DNA of 22,015 nucleotides from a virus (lineage: Duplodnaviria > Heunggongvirae > Uroviricota > Caudoviricetes): IMG/VR virus record IMGVR_UViG_3300028797_000113; one strand, given 5' to 3'. Below are positions 1 to 19,545 of this stretch, one piece after another. Made by a program: the position numbers and the translations under genes. Each line of letters starts with the position of its first letter. Position 1 is the stretch's first letter. Below the pieces are notes generated by a model, which saw only the letters and a list, made by a program, of their open reading frames with translations, had not been told where the DNA came from and did not search any database.

Positions 1-118
1 ACTGTATTTGCCTGCTCTTCCCGGTCGTAACCTTGAGATTTAATAAATCACACAATTCCTTGTAGTTCTTTATTATCATTCCCTCTTGTATCTTGCTTGT
101 ATCTAAATGCAGTATCAT
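1..118 (-). CDS. 5' part of a divergent (leftward) hypothetical protein, truncated by the window edge
   Basis: Not in the ORF track. Minus strand reads AGGGGG RBS, then ATG at 118, open to base 1: MILHLDTSKIQEGMIIKNYKELCDLLNLKVTTGKSRQIQ. The IKNYKELC-x-LL...TGKS...Q pattern resembles N-termini of Firmicutes phage hypothetical proteins (recognition from memory). Confidence 0.75.
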   Translation of the reverse strand, partial: MILHLDTSKIQEGMIIKNYKELCDLLNLKVTTGKSRQIQ

Positions 119-143
119 ACATCCCCCTATCAAAGAAGAAAAC

Positions 144-172
144 TTGTCACTTTCGGCTCTATTATATATATT
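144..172 (+). promoter_or_regulatory. Putative sigma70/sigmaA promoter
   Basis: TTGTCA (144-149), 17-nt spacer, TATATT (167-172). AT-rich context raises the chance of a random match. Confidence 0.4.
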
Positions 173-280
173 ATATACACTATATTTATATATTATATAT
201 TTATATACAGTATATTAATGTTATACAGTAGATTTATATTTAATGTATATTTATATTTACTATACAGTCAAAAGTGACAA
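144..280. repeat. AT-rich tract bracketed by a perfect 10-bp inverted repeat, with internal TATACAG repeats
   Basis: TTGTCACTTT (144-153) / AAAGTGACAA (271-280). TATACAG at 204, 222 and 261, TATACAC at 174. The interior is almost all A/T. Confidence 0.8.
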
Positions 281-398
281 CTTTTTGTGGTTCGACTTTA
301 TACTACCACAAGGTTTTGTGTTTGACAATAATTTTTTGTCGAATATTTATTCATACATTTCGCCTTTAGTTAATCAATTAAGCAATCGTTTAATCGTA

Positions 399-491
399 AT
401 CTGGTATTATCTTTTTCTCCAATTTCGGGGATTTTATAATACCAATCTGGTCTTATTTTTTTATTCGCTTACGCTCATCTGGTCTTATTTT
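399..491 (+). repeat. Three iteron-like direct repeats ATCTGGTCTTATTTT
   Basis: Perfect 15-mer at 445-459 and 477-491; a 2-mismatch copy ATCTGGTATTATCTT at 399-413. Confidence 0.75.
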
Positions 492-679
492 CGTACATGG
501 CATTTTTATGGGGATGTCTCGGTATCGGGTTGGAATGGATGCGATAACGATGGAGCAGCTCCGTTCCAAACTTTCCGACGGTCCGGGAATGCCGTTTTTA
601 ATACCCCCGGGACACATTTCAGGTTCTGTTGACCACGATCCTTTTACACCTCAATTTTTTTATCGTGAAAATTACCATT

Positions 680-709
680 TTTACAATAACATTTCATTAT
701 TTATATAAT
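680..709 (+). promoter_or_regulatory. Putative sigma70/sigmaA promoter
   Basis: TTTACA (680-685), 18-nt spacer, TATAAT (704-709). Confidence 0.45.
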
Positions 710-802
710 TCTCTTTTTTGCTTCTTTTTTCTCTTTTGCCATTTTCCAAGAAAAATTTTTTCTTTTTTTTGCCTTTTTTTCGGGTGCTATTTTTCGGGTG
801 GG

Positions 803-830
803 TTGAGTTTTGCAAACAGTCTGCTATTGT
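803..830 (+). promoter_or_regulatory. Putative extended -10 promoter upstream of the structured tract
   Basis: TTGAGT (803-808), 16-nt spacer, TG-n-TATTGT (822-830). Confidence 0.3.
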
Positions 831-1043
831 GGAATTGCAAGTTGATGACGCGGACATCACTTGAGATAACTATAATTCCGCGAGAAAGGTTGTGATTTTA
901 TTCGATAGTACGTTTTTAATAATCTGAAACTCTATATATTCCCCGCCGTGTGCGTTATAACGCCACATTGGGACACGCAAGCCGTAGCGATAGCGTCAAA
1001 GCCGTGAGCGTGCTATAGGGTGGATAAATTACATACAGTCATC

Positions 1044-1603
1044 ATCCGTGTGTGTGTATCGGTTGCCAATGTTAGCCACAAACGATAGATAGCACGTCAA
1101 AAAAACGGGCTTCGTTCCCGAACGTGCGGAAAGATATGAGGTACAACACTATGACAACGATTACAGAATTACTCAACGTATGGGCAACATTGGACAATGC
1201 ACAGAAAGACAAGGCTATGAGCATACTCAACGCTATGTCTAACGAAAAGACCGCAAAGGTCGAAGATAACACGCTGGTAGAGAACATCTTCGCTAATATG
1301 CCGAAGTTTAAGAAGAACGCGAAGCGTTTATTCCTTACAGAGCAGACACACCGCTATTACGGCATCCATAAAGCGCTTGTTGCTTTAGGCGCAGAGTGGA
1401 TTAAGAAAGAAGACAGCGAGTACGAGTGCGGTTATTGGCAGTTTAAAGATACCGCGACTTGCGAAGACGCTTATAAGAAGCAGTGGGCATACGCTAACGG
1501 ACAGAACGAACAGAACAAGGTCTATGACTTCGTAATTGGCGCGTTCTAAACACACATTTAGGTAACTTCGGCTAACATTGGCACACGATATAAGCACACG
1601 GAT
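1044..1603. repeat. 34-nt imperfect inverted repeat (long-range stem) flanking the 132-aa ORF
   Basis: 1064-1077 TGCCAATGTTAGCC / 1570-1583 GGCTAACATTGGCA (14 bp perfect), plus 1057-1061/1586-1590 and 1044-1052/1595-1603 (9 bp perfect). Confidence 0.9.
1151..1549 (+). CDS. Hypothetical protein (132 aa) embedded in the structured tract; ALGAEW...YW segment reminiscent of DUF5710-like small domains
   Basis: GAGGT RBS at 1138-1142 before ATG 1151; normal protein-like composition. Domain resemblance is weak. Confidence 0.8.
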   Translation: MTTITELLNVWATLDNAQKDKAMSILNAMSNEKTAKVEDNTLVENIFANMPKFKKNAKRLFLTEQTHRYYGIHKALVALGAEWIKKEDSEYECGYWQFKDTATCEDAYKKQWAYANGQNEQNKVYDFVIGAF

Positions 1604-2800
1604 AGTGCAAGAATTAAAACCGCTTAGGTTAGACGGCTTATATGAACGTCACTCAAGGCGCACGTTAAGTGGCAACCCATCTTTAAGATGTCCATACGCA
1701 GTAGCGTGGTTGTGGATAATTCTCACACATAGACACGATATGCACAAGTCGAGTTGTTGCGAATGAGCGCACAACAAATGCTTGGAACAGATTTAGCGAC
1801 AAAACGTATCTTGGCGGAGTAGCATTGGTGCATAAAACCCTTGTCTGTTCAATAGTGGGGACACGACAGAGTGTAAAGACAACGTGTATAGCGTGTTGTG
1901 GGACAAGATGCCTAACATTAGTGAATGAGTATTTCGTGAACCGCATTTATCACGGGAAAGACGGTAAGTTGTCGGACTGAACAAGTTTGCGGGACTTGAA
2001 CCCACGTGGCAACCCTCAAGAAGTGTGTGCGTACTTCGACTGAACGAAAGAGTTAGTCAGTTTGGGCTTGGACAAGTAGGTTATGCATAAGTGAGCATCG
2101 TGGGCAAATAGTGTATGTGTTTGGGTGGCATACACTCATATTGGGACTGTCGACTTTGACACGTCGCCGACTTCTGTTCGGCGTAGTCCGTGGGTAACCT
2201 TTGGTTACGGCTATCCGTACCATTGGCACTCATTTAGAACCATAGGACAAGCGTGTACTTACGACTATCTATAAACAAGCGTGCAAGGATCACGCGTTGA
2301 TAGGTGGCAGTTCGTGGTGTGAGAACGACAAGCAGGAAGTCGTGGGGTGCAGAATAGTGCGCTTTACTCACACCACACAAGATACCAAAAACTTCAAGGT
2401 GCGTGTGATGATGTGTTGCGTCATAACGTACACATCATTATTCCCCTTGAGCGTCACTCACGCCAATGAAAAAACGACGATAAAAGTGTGGAGCGTGAGC
2501 CGCTATAAACCATAGGTGCAACTTACCATTAGCAATAATGGTTTCCGGCACAAGGGGCAGTTGGAGTAGGTGCTGTCGAAAAAATTGGTGGACTATGCCG
2601 ACCTTAACAGGCATAAGACAGTACACGAAAGTGTTGGTGCTGACCACATTAGCAACTGTTATCGGGTGCAACTCCCGATGGTAGCATTTCAGAAACGTCT
2701 AATAGAGCAAAGTGACTATGATAACACGTAGTTGCGTGGTCGCTTTCGCCGTAGACGTGCAACAACGGAAACGAACAAACGACGGAAAGGGGGTGTCGCT

Positions 2801-2860
2801 ATGATACCGCAGACAACTTGGGCAGACATTATGGATGCATATAACAATACCGACAAATAA
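2801..2860 (+). CDS. Putative 19-aa micro-protein (MIPQTTWADIMDAYNNTDK)
   Basis: GAAAGGGGGT RBS directly upstream; first ORF of the array. Confidence 0.45.
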   Translation: MIPQTTWADIMDAYNNTDK

Positions 2861-2887
2861 CGCAAATGCGTTGGAAAGGAAACGAAA

Positions 2888-3217
2888 ATGAAATACGTAA
2901 TCACGCAGGACTACCATAGCAACTATGTTGCAATAGACAAGAACGGAAACGCATACGTACACCGTCAAGGCACTATGTGTTATAGAGAACCGAAAATGAA
3001 GTGGTTTAACACACTTGAAGAAGCAAGGGAATTTGCAAACAAGGTGGCAGACCATCCACTTTGGGAACGCTTATATAGTCACGGCATAGACATATGTGAA
3101 GCGATAATTACACGTCACGTTGACGAATACGGAAATCGTTATACAACAGTTAACGCAGGCAAAATCATTTCCAGCGTGCCTGTAAAGAAATCGGATTATA
3201 GCAAATACTGTTGGTAA
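2888..3217 (+). CDS. Hypothetical phage protein (109 aa)
   Basis: GGAAAGGA RBS; contains the FNTLEEA motif. Confidence 0.85.
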   Translation: MKYVITQDYHSNYVAIDKNGNAYVHRQGTMCYREPKMKWFNTLEEAREFANKVADHPLWERLYSHGIDICEAIITRHVDEYGNRYTTVNAGKIISSVPVKKSDYSKYCW

Positions 3218-7053: not shown

Positions 7054-7230
7054 ATGAAAGAGAAATTTAAAGGTTTTTGTTTCTTAAGTATTATGCCGTT
7101 GGTTATTTTATCGGCGGTATTTTTTGATAGCGGAATTACGAACGGATATGAAGTTATGCTTTTGCTTGGCTTTTTGAGTTTTATTATCGCAGCGTTTAAT
7201 TTCGCAACGGTGCTGATATTAGGGAATTAA
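7054..7230 (+). CDS. Small membrane protein with two predicted TM helices (58 aa)
   Basis: GGAGGAG RBS; hydrophobic stretches FCFLSIMPLVILSAVFF and VMLLLGFLSFIIAAFNFATVLIL. Confidence 0.8.
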   Translation: MKEKFKGFCFLSIMPLVILSAVFFDSGITNGYEVMLLLGFLSFIIAAFNFATVLILGN

Positions 7231-12343: not shown

Positions 12344-13228
12344 ATGCAGAAATTTATTGATGATTTATTTAACATTATGTCAGAGAGATTTGACGGAACA
12401 ATTACAAAAAGGATGATAAGCAGAGCAAATGTCGGAGAAACGACTGGGTTTGTGCTGCGCAAAGAAGGAAGTAACTGCGCGCCGACAATTTATGTTGAGA
12501 GTTATTATGACGCTTACGCCTCCGGCTATGCAACAGTAGAAGAAATCGCAGATGAGATTTTCAAATCGATCGATGAAAATCCCGAACCTACCACAGATGT
12601 AGACATTAACCAGCTTACCAACTGGGAGTTTGTCAAAGACAAGATTAGACCCGTGTTAATTTCAACTGTCGGAAACGAAGAATACATTAAGAATTTGGCA
12701 TATTCCAAGACTCGAACCGACCTTGTTATTCTCTACCAGATTGAGTTAGTGAATGACGGAAACGCTTGCCAGTGCATTAAGATTCAGAAAGCCGCATTAA
12801 AGATATACGGAGTTACAGTAACGGAACTCAAAAAGGTAGCATTTCAGAATTTGGATGGACACATCAGATTCTTAAATATGGCTCAGGAATTAGGTTTCCT
12901 TCTTGGCGCACCCGAAGAAGAAGAAATGGAAGATTTTCCCATGTGGGTATTGTCCAATGATGCTAAAACTTACGGAGCAGCGGCTATCTTCTCAAGCAAG
13001 GCAATGAAAGAAGTCACCACAAAAATGAAGACGAACCAGTTATATATTTTGCCGTCATCTATTCACGAAGTAATAATCTTGGACGCCACAAAGCCCGACA
13101 CCGCAGGAAAGACAGAAGAATTAAAGGCAATGGTTAGGGAAGTGAACGCCACACAGGTCGCACCTAAAGACAAACTGTCCGACAATGTGTACTTCTATAA
13201 CGGAAAGACCATTGAAGTTGTAGAATAA
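12344..13228 (+). CDS. DUF5688 family protein
   Basis: APTIYVESYY near the N-terminus; C-terminal LYILPSSIHEVIIL...MVREVN...LSDNVYFY signature; AAGGAG RBS. Confidence 0.85.
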   Translation: MQKFIDDLFNIMSERFDGTITKRMISRANVGETTGFVLRKEGSNCAPTIYVESYYDAYASGYATVEEIADEIFKSIDENPEPTTDVDINQLTNWEFVKDKIRPVLISTVGNEEYIKNLAYSKTRTDLVILYQIELVNDGNACQCIKIQKAALKIYGVTVTELKKVAFQNLDGHIRFLNMAQELGFLLGAPEEEEMEDFPMWVLSNDAKTYGAAAIFSSKAMKEVTTKMKTNQLYILPSSIHEVIILDATKPDTAGKTEELKAMVREVNATQVAPKDKLSDNVYFYNGKTIEVVE

Positions 13229-14354: not shown

Positions 14355-14588
14355 ATGGCAGATGAGATCAAATGCGAAGTCATAAAAGATTATGGCGTAA
14401 TTGCAACAAAGGGCGAGTATGAACTTAAACTTCAGAAGGTGGCGTGGAACGGTAGAGAACCCAAATACGACATTCGCGCTTGGAAAGGCGAGAAGTGTGG
14501 TAAGGGCGCTACTTTTACAGACGAAGAACTTAAAGGTCTGTATGACAAACTTAAGGAACTCGACAAAAAGGGTATCTTTAAAGAATAA
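14355..14588 (+). CDS. YdbC / PC4-like single-stranded nucleic-acid-binding protein (77 aa)
   Basis: IKCEVIKDYG...VAWNGREPKYDIRAW...GKGATFTDEEL signature. Confidence 0.85.
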   Translation: MADEIKCEVIKDYGVIATKGEYELKLQKVAWNGREPKYDIRAWKGEKCGKGATFTDEELKGLYDKLKELDKKGIFKE

Positions 14589-14857: not shown

Positions 14858-15256
14858 ATGATGCGAATTTGTGGTTGTGTTGATGTTATAGCGGTGGCTT
14901 TAAACACTACTTTTGCGTCCGACGAATTACCGAAAATAAATATGCTCGAAAGATGCAAAGAGGATTTTGAATACCGTCTAACTTGCTGGGATAATGACAT
15001 ATTGTTCGACGATTATTATGATATGGCTGACTTCATTGTGGAAACTGAAAATCTTTCCAAAGAAGAGGATGCCATATACGACAAGGCAGACGAGTTATGT
15101 GCCTATATCCGCGAACAATGGACAAATAAACTGCCCATTATTACAGAGGTTGAGTTTGGTTCATTAGAGGATGAATGTTGGGTAGACACGATTTATATCG
15201 TGGACTGCGATTATAAAGAAATGTACAAACAGATGAAAGAAAAAGAAGGAGAATAA
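14858..15256 (+). CDS. Hypothetical acidic protein (132 aa)
   Basis: AAGGAGGT RBS. Confidence 0.85.
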   Translation: MMRICGCVDVIAVALNTTFASDELPKINMLERCKEDFEYRLTCWDNDILFDDYYDMADFIVETENLSKEEDAIYDKADELCAYIREQWTNKLPIITEVEFGSLEDECWVDTIYIVDCDYKEMYKQMKEKEGE

Positions 15257-16025: not shown

Positions 16026-16544
16026 ATGGCAGAAATTAAATGCGAAATCAAAAAAGATTTAGGAAGTCTTGGCGGTAAAAAGAAACTGACATATACCGCT
16101 TGGAACGGGAACGCTCCGAAGTTTGATATTAGAGACTGGTATGAGAACGGCAATGCTGGAAAGGGCGTGACTTTGGACAAGGCAGAGTTGGAAAGCCTTT
16201 ATAAATTATTGCAGACCGTCTTTGAGTCAGCCGAAGAGGAAACAGAAGAAGTAATCGAAAATCCTTGGGATGAAGAAGAAGCGAAGCCCGCACCGAAAGA
16301 TAAAACACTGGAACTTTTAAACAAATATCCCGACGAGGTACAGCAGAAATTTGACGCCCTTGATGAATTATTTAAAGGCTTTACGGTTGAAAAGGCATAC
16401 GGCAAAATGCCCTTTGCAGACGGAAACAGACTTCAGTATTCAGTCAAGAAAGGAAAGTTTCCGATATATGAAAGCACGTTGACAAAGTTAGGACTTAATT
16501 GGTTCATAACAGATATTGGTAACTTATATATTTATACACTGTAG
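16026..16544 (+). CDS. YdbC / PC4-like protein with acidic linker and extra C-terminal domain (172 aa)
   Basis: IKCEIKKDLG...AWNGNAPKFDIRDW...GKGVTLDKAEL; GAGGAGGTG RBS. Confidence 0.85.
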   Translation: MAEIKCEIKKDLGSLGGKKKLTYTAWNGNAPKFDIRDWYENGNAGKGVTLDKAELESLYKLLQTVFESAEEETEEVIENPWDEEEAKPAPKDKTLELLNKYPDEVQQKFDALDELFKGFTVEKAYGKMPFADGNRLQYSVKKGKFPIYESTLTKLGLNWFITDIGNLYIYTL

Positions 16545-16555
16545 GAGGTGATAAT

Positions 16556-17299
16556 ATGCCGAACTGGGTTTACAACGATTTAACAATTAAAAAAGAAGAC
16601 AGAGCATTTGTATTAGATGTTGAAGGAAACCCTGACTTTAATGTTCTTTGTCCTATGGCACAGTCTTTGTGCGACACCATTTCTCCCGTAAGAAAAGATG
16701 CAATTTATCTTTACTTGTCAGAGAAGTGTACAAAGGGAGTTCATCATACATTGATCGAAAAGCACGACATACGTCCTGAAGATGTCAAGGCTGCAAGAGA
16801 ACTTCTTGAAGAAACCGAACCTCAATTCAGCAATTTAGGTTCATGGAGCGACAGAAAGAAGATTCCCCACGAAGAATACGTGGAAGAATATTATACCATC
16901 GGTAAGAACTATGTAGAGAATCTAGAAAACTACGGAACATATACGTGGTATGATTGGGCTAACAGAAACTGGGGAACAAAATGGAATGCGGGCGACGGTT
17001 ACGTAGAAGAAGTCGGAGATTATTTACACATCCATTTCGATACCGCTTGGTGCTACCCTGATGGTTGGCTTTTTGCGCTTTCAAAGAAGTGCCACTTCCA
17101 CTTGGCTTGGGAAGAAGAACAGGGCTACCGCGGAATTGTCTACAACAACGAAGATGGTTGGGGAGAAGTCGATTTGCCTATGCTTGAGTGGGAAGAAGAT
17201 GAATACGGAGATTGTGTGCAGTCCGAAGACGAGTATGGCGACGACTGGATATATGTCGACATTGATACCGTATTCCCCGACTATCCTAAACGAGTGTAA
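16556..17299 (+). CDS. DUF1281 / YubB (Api92-like ferredoxin-like domain) family protein
   Basis: MPNW.YN.L.I, DFN.L.PM, WYDW...NWGTKWNA and FDTAW..P signatures. Confidence 0.85.
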   Translation: MPNWVYNDLTIKKEDRAFVLDVEGNPDFNVLCPMAQSLCDTISPVRKDAIYLYLSEKCTKGVHHTLIEKHDIRPEDVKAARELLEETEPQFSNLGSWSDRKKIPHEEYVEEYYTIGKNYVENLENYGTYTWYDWANRNWGTKWNAGDGYVEEVGDYLHIHFDTAWCYPDGWLFALSKKCHFHLAWEEEQGYRGIVYNNEDGWGEVDLPMLEWEEDEYGDCVQSEDEYGDDWIYVDIDTVFPDYPKRV

Positions 17300-17523: not shown

Positions 17524-17551
17524 ATCTGAGTATACTAAGGAGGATAACACT

Positions 17552-18034
17552 ATGAGCGGATTAGAGAAGTTTAAAACAGAGATTCAGGCAGAAGTCGACA
17601 AGGCTTCGGATGAAGCGAAACAGAATGCTCAGGCTCAGGCAAACACCATTATTGCTCATCTTGAGAGCGTGTGTGATGCAGAGTATGACGGTCTACTGAA
17701 TCAGCCTCACAAATCATTCCGTAGAATGTGGATATTTGTGAGAGAAAAGGCAAGGGAAAGAGCCGTAGATGGTTGCGCTTTTATTGATGACGCAACAGTG
17801 TTCGGGTGGATCGACGAATATGTTGGGCTTGACGACAAAGAAGAAGTTGAAGCAGAAGAAAAGACAGAAAAGGAAAAGGCAAATAAAAAGCCCGCAAAGA
17901 AAACTGCTGCCAAGCCGACAAAAAAGACCGAGAAGTTTGATGTCGAAAAGGAAATCAAGAACGTACAGGCAGAGATTAAGAAACAGCACAAGATTTCTGA
18001 GGCAAGGCAGATGAGCATATTTGATTTGATGTAG
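17552..18034 (+). CDS. PcfK-like / AcrIIA9-family protein (160 aa)
   Basis: KSF..MW.FV.EKAR..AVDGCAFIDDATVFGWIDEY core, K/A-rich linker, terminal QMSIFDLM; directly upstream of a PcfJ gene; TAAGGAGG RBS before ATG 17552. Confidence 0.8.
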   Translation: MSGLEKFKTEIQAEVDKASDEAKQNAQAQANTIIAHLESVCDAEYDGLLNQPHKSFRRMWIFVREKARERAVDGCAFIDDATVFGWIDEYVGLDDKEEVEAEEKTEKEKANKKPAKKTAAKPTKKTEKFDVEKEIKNVQAEIKKQHKISEARQMSIFDLM

Positions 18035-18045
18035 GAGGTGGTTCT

Positions 18046-19545
18046 ATGAAATTGACCGCGTCAATGAAAAAGTTTCTGAAAAATGATGTCGTACCGAACT
18101 ACATTATCTATTCAAGAGATGAGCAGTATGCATATTGTACGCATTGTCAGAAAGAAGTAACCATTGAATTTAAAGGCACAAGGCCCGGAAGAAAGATACA
18201 GTGTCCTTCTTGTAAGAAGATGACAACGCTCAAAGCAAAAGGAAAGACAAAAAATTCTTTCTTTGACAGTGGCGTTGGTATCATTATGGAGAAACTTGAC
18301 GAAGTCATTATCCATTATTACGACGTTAACAAGACATACCACAAAGATGGAACGCTTGCTTACTGCGACATCCACGAATGTTTGAGAGAGTCGTTCGACG
18401 AGAATGGTTTAATAGAAGCGTGGGATAATTCGTGGTCATACGGCTGGAAGAAATGCAGAATAAATGAATATTCCACATACACTACCGCCAAAGGAGAGCC
18501 AGTATTACACATCAACACTAATTGGCAACACACAAATATATACACAAAGAACATTAAAGATGTCATCGTCGGAACCGCTTGGGAAAAGAGCTGTATGGAT
18601 GGCATTTTCAAACTTAAAACGGAGAATTATTACTGGCGCAACATTAGAAATTTCCTTTTGAGTTATCCTAAAACAAAAATAGACGAATATCTCTACAAGG
18701 TAGGGTTCTATGAACTTGCTTCTTGTTCGGTGTTTGGTTATTTACCCGAAAGGGCATCTGAAAAGACATTGCCCGAAATGCTTATGGTCAGCAAAGAACA
18801 TTATAAAGCAATGCTGAAGCAAGGGAATCCTACTTATGACGAGTTGCGCAAACGTCAGAGAATGACGCAGTATAACTTCCCTGAATGTGACTGGGAAATC
18901 TTTAAAAAATATTTTGAAGACCACTCATATTACGATCCGTTCGGTACAACAACATGGGACGAAATCAAAAAGTATTTTCCCAAAACGCTTCATCAGTTCG
19001 GGAAGTATGCTAATACTATCCCGGGCTTTGACACAAAATATTACAGAGATTATCTGGATATGTGCCACCAGTTAGGTTATGACTTAAACAATACATTCGT
19101 TTTATTCCCCAGAGATTTGAACCAAGCACACGATTTATGTGTTGACGCAATTAACAGAAGAAACGAACGCAAAGCAAAGAGAGAAGCACGCAAGCAAGCA
19201 AAGAACTATGAGTCTTTAAGACAGAAATATGTTGAGCAGTATTCATACGACAAAGGAAACTTATCTATCATAGTTCCCGAAGATACGGAGGCAATAAGCA
19301 AAGAAGGTCAGGCTCTGCGCCATTGCGTTGGCTCTTATGTTTCAAGAGTGGCAAACGGCGAAACAATTATTCTCTTTGTGAGAAGAAAGAAATCTCTGAA
19401 AAAATCTTACTACACTATGGAAGTGAAGAACGGAGAAATCGTTCAGTGCAGAGGTTTTAAGAACGATGACTGCAACGCAGAAGTCAAAAGATTCATTAAG
19501 TCTTTTGCAAGGGACACTCATTTAAGAATGGGAGATATAGCATAA
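18046..19545 (+). CDS. PcfJ domain-containing protein (499 aa) with N-terminal CxxC...CxxC zinc-binding motif
   Basis: YRDYLDM...FP.DL.QAHD and EGQALRHCVGSY...ILFVR...YYTMEV...IVQCRG..N signatures; CTHC...CPSC. Confidence 0.9.
   Translation: MKLTASMKKFLKNDVVPNYIIYSRDEQYAYCTHCQKEVTIEFKGTRPGRKIQCPSCKKMTTLKAKGKTKNSFFDSGVGIIMEKLDEVIIHYYDVNKTYHKDGTLAYCDIHECLRESFDENGLIEAWDNSWSYGWKKCRINEYSTYTTAKGEPVLHINTNWQHTNIYTKNIKDVIVGTAWEKSCMDGIFKLKTENYYWRNIRNFLLSYPKTKIDEYLYKVGFYELASCSVFGYLPERASEKTLPEMLMVSKEHYKAMLKQGNPTYDELRKRQRMTQYNFPECDWEIFKKYFEDHSYYDPFGTTTWDEIKKYFPKTLHQFGKYANTIPGFDTKYYRDYLDMCHQLGYDLNNTFVLFPRDLNQAHDLCVDAINRRNERKAKREARKQAKNYESLRQKYVEQYSYDKGNLSIIVPEDTEAISKEGQALRHCVGSYVSRVANGETIILFVRRKKSLKKSYYTMEVKNGEIVQCRGFKNDDCNAEVKRFIKSFARDTHLRMGDIA

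Follow-up and report, generated by a model that had tools for sequence, protein, structure and literature searches.

We found that a long-range helix places the first gene of the early arm of an SPbeta-like phage in a loop of a large RNA; the helix is real, is selected as RNA and is not a product of chance. Among related phages, this helix is independent of which protein it encloses, its length and position being fixed. The reading we favour, at a probability of about 0.55, is that the first early transcript is a precursor resembling an rRNA operon, whose leader-trailer stalk would be cut by RNase III, freeing both a message and the large RNA. The very first gene of the phage would thus be processed within an architecture of the rRNA type. 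Particular to this locus is a single gene nested ahead of an RNA of more than 1.2 kb, with filled, swapped and empty alleles, and a literature search returned no paper describing such a gene-in-stem layout.

The closing helix and the gene it encloses

The window, that is, the whole stretch of 22,015 nucleotides analysed, corresponds to positions 95340-117354 within a 129,668-base phage contig (SPbeta-like, ~130 kb). Upstream of the locus, the minus strand carries a 305-aa gene, an 864-aa gene, an HU-like gene, YonG and terminase, an order that equals the SPbeta gene order. From its position, we take the 864-aa protein, which contains a DMDSD motif, to be a YonO-type polymerase, an assignment that no profile supported. 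The stem-enclosed gene sits at the start of the plus-strand early arm (~70 kb). A DNA search among cultured phages gave no match; the relatives analysed below come from gut samples of ruminants and other animals, and the sole hint of a host is that a Butyrivibrio MAG carries a 57% relative of the polymerase. A fraction of 0.26 of sampled words was present in a sheep-gut metatranscriptome, which was not counted as evidence. The plus-strand features up to the end of the closing helix are as follows:

680-709, plus strand: candidate alternative transcription start, a site matching 11/12 of the consensus
803..830, plus strand: candidate sigmaA promoter TTGAGT-16-TGnTATTGT, read by eye; close relatives have TTGCCT
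837..1043, plus strand: 5' leader with a hairpin at its start; a boxA-like word in several relatives, a degenerate remnant in the window
1044..1077, plus strand: 5' arm of the closing helix, with the conserved core TATCGG at 1057-1062
1092..1127, plus strand: hairpin before the RBS, present in all family-A loci with a varying stem; changes in L008 are confined to the loop
1138..1142, plus strand: RBS GAGGT, recognised by sequence
1151..1549, plus strand: first early gene, 132 aa (family A, 111-167 aa)
1570..1603, plus strand: 3' arm of the closing helix, with the partner of the core at 1585-1590

The two arms form the top inverted repeat of window positions 1-3000 (34 nt, 85% complementary) and pair, as an earlier note on this DNA had described, in Watson-Crick runs of 9+5+14 bp, to which one A-U and two G-U pairs are added, giving a duplex energy of -51.1 kcal/mol. 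In the MFE structure of positions 830-2770 (1.94 kb), 31/34 arm positions pair across, and the arms do enclose the hairpin, RBS and ORF that the note had placed between them. The flank-pairing score of 44.9 compares with 15.2 +/- 3.4 among the early-arm ORFs (169) and with at most 20 among the late-arm ORFs (47), making the stem-closed ORF unique among these ORFs of the phage, and the stem reached a z of -4.4 against shuffles. A further 7-bp outer helix that had been proposed (AAGCCGT/ACGGCTT) did not hold up: both words exist, but their pairing is kept in no relative and is absent from the full-length MFE structure. Instead, the segment containing ACGGCTT pairs better with a conserved downstream partner (1627-1641 with 1964-1978); in L010 and L099, too, this pairing ranks first, there with compensating changes.

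Judged by codon comparison, ORF 1151-1549 is a genuine gene under purifying selection, its differences from close relatives being mostly synonymous (8:5 and 11:4 codons). Twelve family-A proteins could be aligned, with invariant W, F and Q positions. The 132-aa protein had no family match above cut-off, and LAGLIDADG, GIY-YIG, HNH/IsrB and RT domains were absent from all 12 members in Pfam and NCBIfam, in agreement with the earlier reading of the ORF as lacking endonuclease or RT motifs. Below cut-off, Pfam HARP was found in 5/12 members (best E 0.042) and DUF5710 in 2/12 (best E 0.014). In the AlphaFold model with pLDDT 61, a pair of helices at the N-terminus is followed by a small alpha/beta domain at the C-terminus, which weakly resembles HARP/DUF5710. 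Comparison of this model and of a second one (pLDDT 54) with PDB, viral and Atlas libraries gave no significant match (best structural Z 4.8, no standout), and RRM-like structural matches with E > 0.1 were not taken as evidence. Most first proteins are basic, whereas that of the window is not (pI 6.1). The window's protein is likely to be a small early regulator that binds nucleic acids.

Several other elements of the phage were recorded alongside the locus. A+T-rich nested inverted repeats at 139-285, upstream of the 305-aa gene, have counterparts in most relatives and are possibly an origin or packaging site. Further along the window lie a PcfK-like and PcfJ-like gene pair (17549-19545), a DUF5688 gene (12344-13228), a DUF1281_C gene (16556-17299) and two PC4-like genes (16026-16544 and, probably, 14355-14588). 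A bidirectional terminator marks the convergence of the early and late arms (G000 38166-38183). Between the HU-like gene and yonG, there is a tRNA-like gene (L097:9330-9404, L098:9420-9493, L099:9394-9466, L102:9427-9501, G000 91049-91123), whose anticodon arm differs in every phage and has irregular 7-9-nt loops.

The helix across related phages

Single-sequence protein searches returned near-identical copies only, and wider relatives were collected as syntenic loci via the neighbouring polymerase and 305-aa genes. A gene occupies the slot in 11 lineages, always in the same orientation, and a closing helix was found in 11/11 of them, with z values from -3.5 to -8.0. Three unrelated protein families fill the loop:

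Family A, 111-167 aa: the window, L010, L099, L100/L135, L102, L104 and L136, followed by 1.2-1.44 kb of gene-free sequence
Family B, 231-238 aa: L011 and L098, followed by 0.7-0.87 kb of gene-free sequence in which the 3' motif block is also present
Family C, 212 aa: L014 and L106, followed by 0.15-0.47 kb of gene-free sequence with no detectable large RNA

In ten related lineages, the helix measures 27-44 bp, or 29-35 bp with symmetric scoring (ten loci); its 5' arm stops 40-73 nt short of the ATG, and its 3' arm begins 20-67 nt beyond the stop codon. The arm sequences differ between lineages while pairing persists. Over the ten loci, helix positions comprised 275 Watson-Crick, 30 G-U, 10 A-C and 6 other combinations (p about 0.002 after composition), and the excess of G-U over A-C (30:10) indicates selection on the coding-strand RNA. 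When family A was aligned on TATCGG, 19/29 columns changed on both sides around an almost invariant core, a count made on six rows of which two are 97% alike. The earlier note had named non-covarying arms, and homologues living apart from the RNA, as observations that would speak against a protein gene looped out of a large RNA. What we found is covarying arms and, for all family-A homologues of known context, a position adjoining the large RNA, these homologues all being from one syntenic locus in one clade. The large RNA also occurs without a family-A protein; on these observations, the RNA and cognate protein that the note had proposed are a possible pair. The looped-out arrangement thus stands, with the helix selected as RNA.

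Two lineages, L097 and L119, have no such stem. They represent the empty stem-loop loci for which the note had suggested looking: a homologous RNA is present, with a short hairpin in the slot directly before the A-rich motif, which in other loci comes after the stem, and the first gene lies upstream of the RNA and has its own terminator. The first genes of these two lineages were considered as remote members of family A (HMM E 3e-4 for L119 with a 15-sequence set) and were not accepted, given hhalign probabilities of 3% and 0.7%. At the start of the RNA in L097 and L119, there is a tRNA-shaped element in which a T-loop arm comes after a terminator-like hairpin, and which perhaps does the separating job of the stem. 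Since filled and empty alleles exist and three proteins are exchangeable, the function of the helix is directly testable.

Among 101 more distant polymerase loci (1.67 Mb), whose flanks may omit the early leader, there was no comparable G+C-balanced first-gene stem except in one candidate cluster. In the distant polymerase relatives L067-L070 and L073 (e.g. L069:17601-18602), a 39-nt imperfect stem surrounds a 244-aa Rha-like ORF.

The large RNA and its cloverleaf

With the loop excluded, the large RNA measures about 1.2-1.4 kb. Its features and those that follow it in the window are:

1604..2500, plus strand: large structured RNA body; 1652-1658 pairs with 2445-2451
1616..1642, plus strand: conserved A-rich motif directly after the stem, containing the 1627-1641 strand of the pairing described above
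near 2463-2510, plus strand: conserved block CCAAYGA...TAAAC
2502..2685, plus strand: tRNA-like cloverleaf with a 5-bp acceptor-like stem, a D-like arm, a long middle arm and a T-arm at 2660-2680; no normal anticodon loop
2707..2746, plus strand: conserved hairpin after the cloverleaf, kept in L014, which is without the large RNA
2801..2860, plus strand: conserved micro-ORF of 19 aa, MIPQTTWADIMDAYNNTDK, ahead of the first ordinary early gene and served by a strong RBS

The conserved blocks of the RNA lie immediately behind the stem and close to the 3' end. Local folding of the body in the window is weak (z from 0.9 to -1.9, plus strand), so that its fold rests on the conserved motifs and a few covarying helices, most of the middle being unproven; the body is too divergent for a full structure by global alignment or single-sequence folds. 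Rfam searches of the window gave no match at gathering score or at E <= 10 for introns, HEARO, ROOL, GOLLD or rRNA, and those of seven related loci gave no match at E <= 5. Resemblances of an AAAAC..GCTTA motif to RNase P and of GACTA to group I introns were dropped, as neither had Rfam support.

The cloverleaf forms the 3' end of the RNA and was seen in the MFE structures of the window and of five relatives. Its T-arm is 100% paired in 9 loci, with changes on both sides in 3/6 pairs, a pattern matched in 0/500 shuffles, and a weak Rfam Tymo_tRNA-like match (E 0.1) marked the T-arm only. The hairpin at 2707-2746 has a conserved AATGTAYAYC-like loop and a downstream CTCCGT bulge (L014, L010, L097, L099, L102, L104 and L136), and is a candidate protein-binding or antitermination site. 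Counterparts of the micro-ORF, encoding a W..I..A.N peptide, are present in at least seven relatives (L010, L099, L100, L102, L104, L135 and L136).

Proposed processing of the first transcript and comparison with known systems

The processing model builds on the helix, the selection on coding-strand RNA, the homologous RNA and the cloverleaf as observed, and adds their cutting. The precursor would run from the promoter through the leader, a 30-35-bp helix around the first gene, a structured RNA of ~1.1 kb and the cloverleaf into early genes spanning ~70 kb. The helix would form as soon as transcription has passed the trailer, and its two strands would then be cut, probably near the TATCGG core, by the RNase III of the host or by a related enzyme specific for double-stranded RNA. 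Such a cut would release the first gene as a ~0.5-kb message with its ends still paired and would give the large RNA a defined 5' end, or leave it in a two-piece form held by the helix stump, while tRNA-processing enzymes acting at the cloverleaf would separate the large RNA from the downstream message.

We consider this working most likely because stalk lengths are rrn-like, boxA-like words are present in several relatives and RNase III precedents exist. In two genomes from the family of the Butyrivibrio MAG bearing the polymerase relative, the 16S leader-trailer helices are 29 and 31 bp long and start at boxA; the TATCGG core is absent from both stalks. BoxA-like words of this type stand 15-19 nt before the stem in L099 (12/13) and in L010 and L102 (11/13), all with p <= 0.01, and two more family-A leaders have a 10/13 boxA match earlier in the leader. 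Taken together, 5/7 family-A leaders carry a 10-12/13 match (p <= 0.043) to a boxA model drawn from only two operons of the putative host family. The window has no clear boxA, its best match being 10/13 (p 0.06) and in the wrong place, and no boxA-like word was found in the leaders of families B and C. As to precedents, the Coxiella IVS, 444 nt long with a 28-bp stem and an ORF in its loop, is cleaved by RNase III and its pieces are not rejoined (PMC4990558), the B. subtilis enzyme cuts both the 16S stalk and phage SP82 early mRNA (PMC4838370), and Nus complexes on boxA may help a long-range stalk to form (PMC8632103).

The strongest rival reading, though one we hold to be on the unlikely side, is by analogy a bipartite processive antiterminator of the conAn or lambda N/nut kind, in which the first protein and the large RNA would modify host RNA polymerase for read-through of early-arm terminators. 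The stem would then be a feedback switch formed only on read-through, after which RNase III would remove the gene's message. This reading is compatible with the processing model. The layout matches that of conAn, in which a small, poorly conserved first gene and a large, poorly conserved RNA head a long, terminator-bearing operon (PMC8191782). The early arm has sense-strand terminators at 7093, 12120, 13236 and 14630, and fewer promoter-like sites than chance predicts (37 vs 46.6); against this, weak candidate promoters inside the arm may stand behind these terminators (14794, 14967-15022). In L014, the interval from the stop codon to the 3' arm holds a strong intrinsic terminator, which makes formation of the stem dependent on read-through. 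The terminators after the first gene in L097/L119 and a strong intrinsic one right after the cloverleaf in L098, the boxA-like words and the basic nature of most first proteins point the same way. However, the phage RNA has 2-5 times the length of conAn2 (260-600 nt), no stem round conAn1 has been described, and family C does without the large RNA. The ConAn1 domain PF17362 was unmatched in 12 members at E <= 5, which, ConAn1 proteins being divergent, lowers conAn membership only. For the SPbeta-like phages of gut Bacillota, the locus suggests a possible antitermination system made of RNA and protein. A wider proposal, that these loci form a phage ribonucleoprotein class in which the RNA carries the gene of its own protein partner in an RNase III-removable loop and both drive the 70-kb read-through as a phage equivalent of conAn, seems doubtful to us.

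It is rather improbable that the helix is never cut and instead clamps the ends of the first message against exonucleases or gates its translation, with the hairpin before the RBS as a feedback operator. Such a role would suit family C, which keeps the stem without the large RNA, and family A, in which that hairpin is conserved just before an RBS lying outside the helix. However, a nearly regular 30-35-bp duplex is an ordinary RNase III substrate (PMC4990558), and inside a longer transcript the helix would protect ends only after cutting.

The suggestion of the earlier note that the gene is an insertion tolerated because the stem restores the RNA fold, which would make it a passenger or selfish element and a true IVS equivalent, is very unlikely as a full account. 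It is right in that empty alleles exist, with a short hairpin directly before the same motif in L097 and L119, just as IVSs replace a tetraloop (PMC4990558). It is incomplete in that stems also close unrelated genes in L011 and L098, where the RNA is shorter, and in L014 and L106, which indicates that the stem serves the gene's message too. Moreover, the gene is under purifying selection, has no nuclease, RT or transposase match and is present as a single genomic copy, and it is always the first early gene that occupies the slot, whatever the lineage. The slot gene differs between phages, as it might if the arms were DNA inverted repeats ending a mobile or invertible cassette, but this reading is largely refuted by the coding-strand excess of G-U over A-C, by arms that change freely while pairing is kept, and by the constant gene orientation, with no flanking duplication and no second copy.

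The stalk can be compared with known systems. The likeness of the element to group I/II introns and HEARO, on which the earlier note had leaned, lies in a structured RNA whose stem sets an ORF in a loop, and it fails beyond that: the phage element has no Rfam match, no catalytic motifs and no endonuclease or RT, and no split ORF or tRNA flanks it as an interrupted exon. With ROOL and GOLLD (PMC12286853), it has in common a large phage RNA with a conserved 3' part, a variable 5' part and a linked tRNA-like module. It differs from them in lacking an Rfam match, in exceeding the ~800 nt of GOLLD, in having a gene in its stem and in heading an early operon rather than a tRNA island; the 5' anatomy is hereby fixed for a phage RNA that is not catalogued and exceeds both GOLLD and ROOL in length. 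The conAn systems of pLS20, pCF10 and pAD1 (PMC8191782) likewise place a small divergent first gene and a long RNA at the head of a long terminator-bearing Bacillota operon, but they belong to plasmids, whereas the phage gene is nested in the stem of its 1.2-1.4-kb RNA and has no PF17362 match.

The rrn leader-trailer stalks (PMC4838370, PMC8632103) resemble the phage stalks of 29-35 bp in length (29 and 31 bp in the likely host family), in the boxA-like word of several relatives and in tRNA-like punctuation downstream. In contrast to them, the phage stalk encloses a protein gene and the stable RNA comes after it, with boxA degenerate in the window and not found in families B and C. The ORF-bearing 23S IVSs of Coxiella burnetii and Leptospira (PMC4990558) are alike in size (0.4-0.6 kb), in a terminal stem of ~30 bp with few mismatches, in a loop ORF of ~14-15 kDa and in replacing a short hairpin of a large RNA. 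They differ in that the phage element lies in a non-coding phage RNA with no rRNA match, and in that the phage protein is not S23p-like, having no Pfam match and being modelled as a helix pair plus alpha/beta domain rather than a four-helix bundle. The phage gene is further set apart from the IVS ORF by purifying selection and its status as first early gene, with cleavage of its stem predicted. The element is thus neither an intron nor a HEARO RNA; it works like an ORF-bearing IVS or an rrn stalk while being a member of neither.
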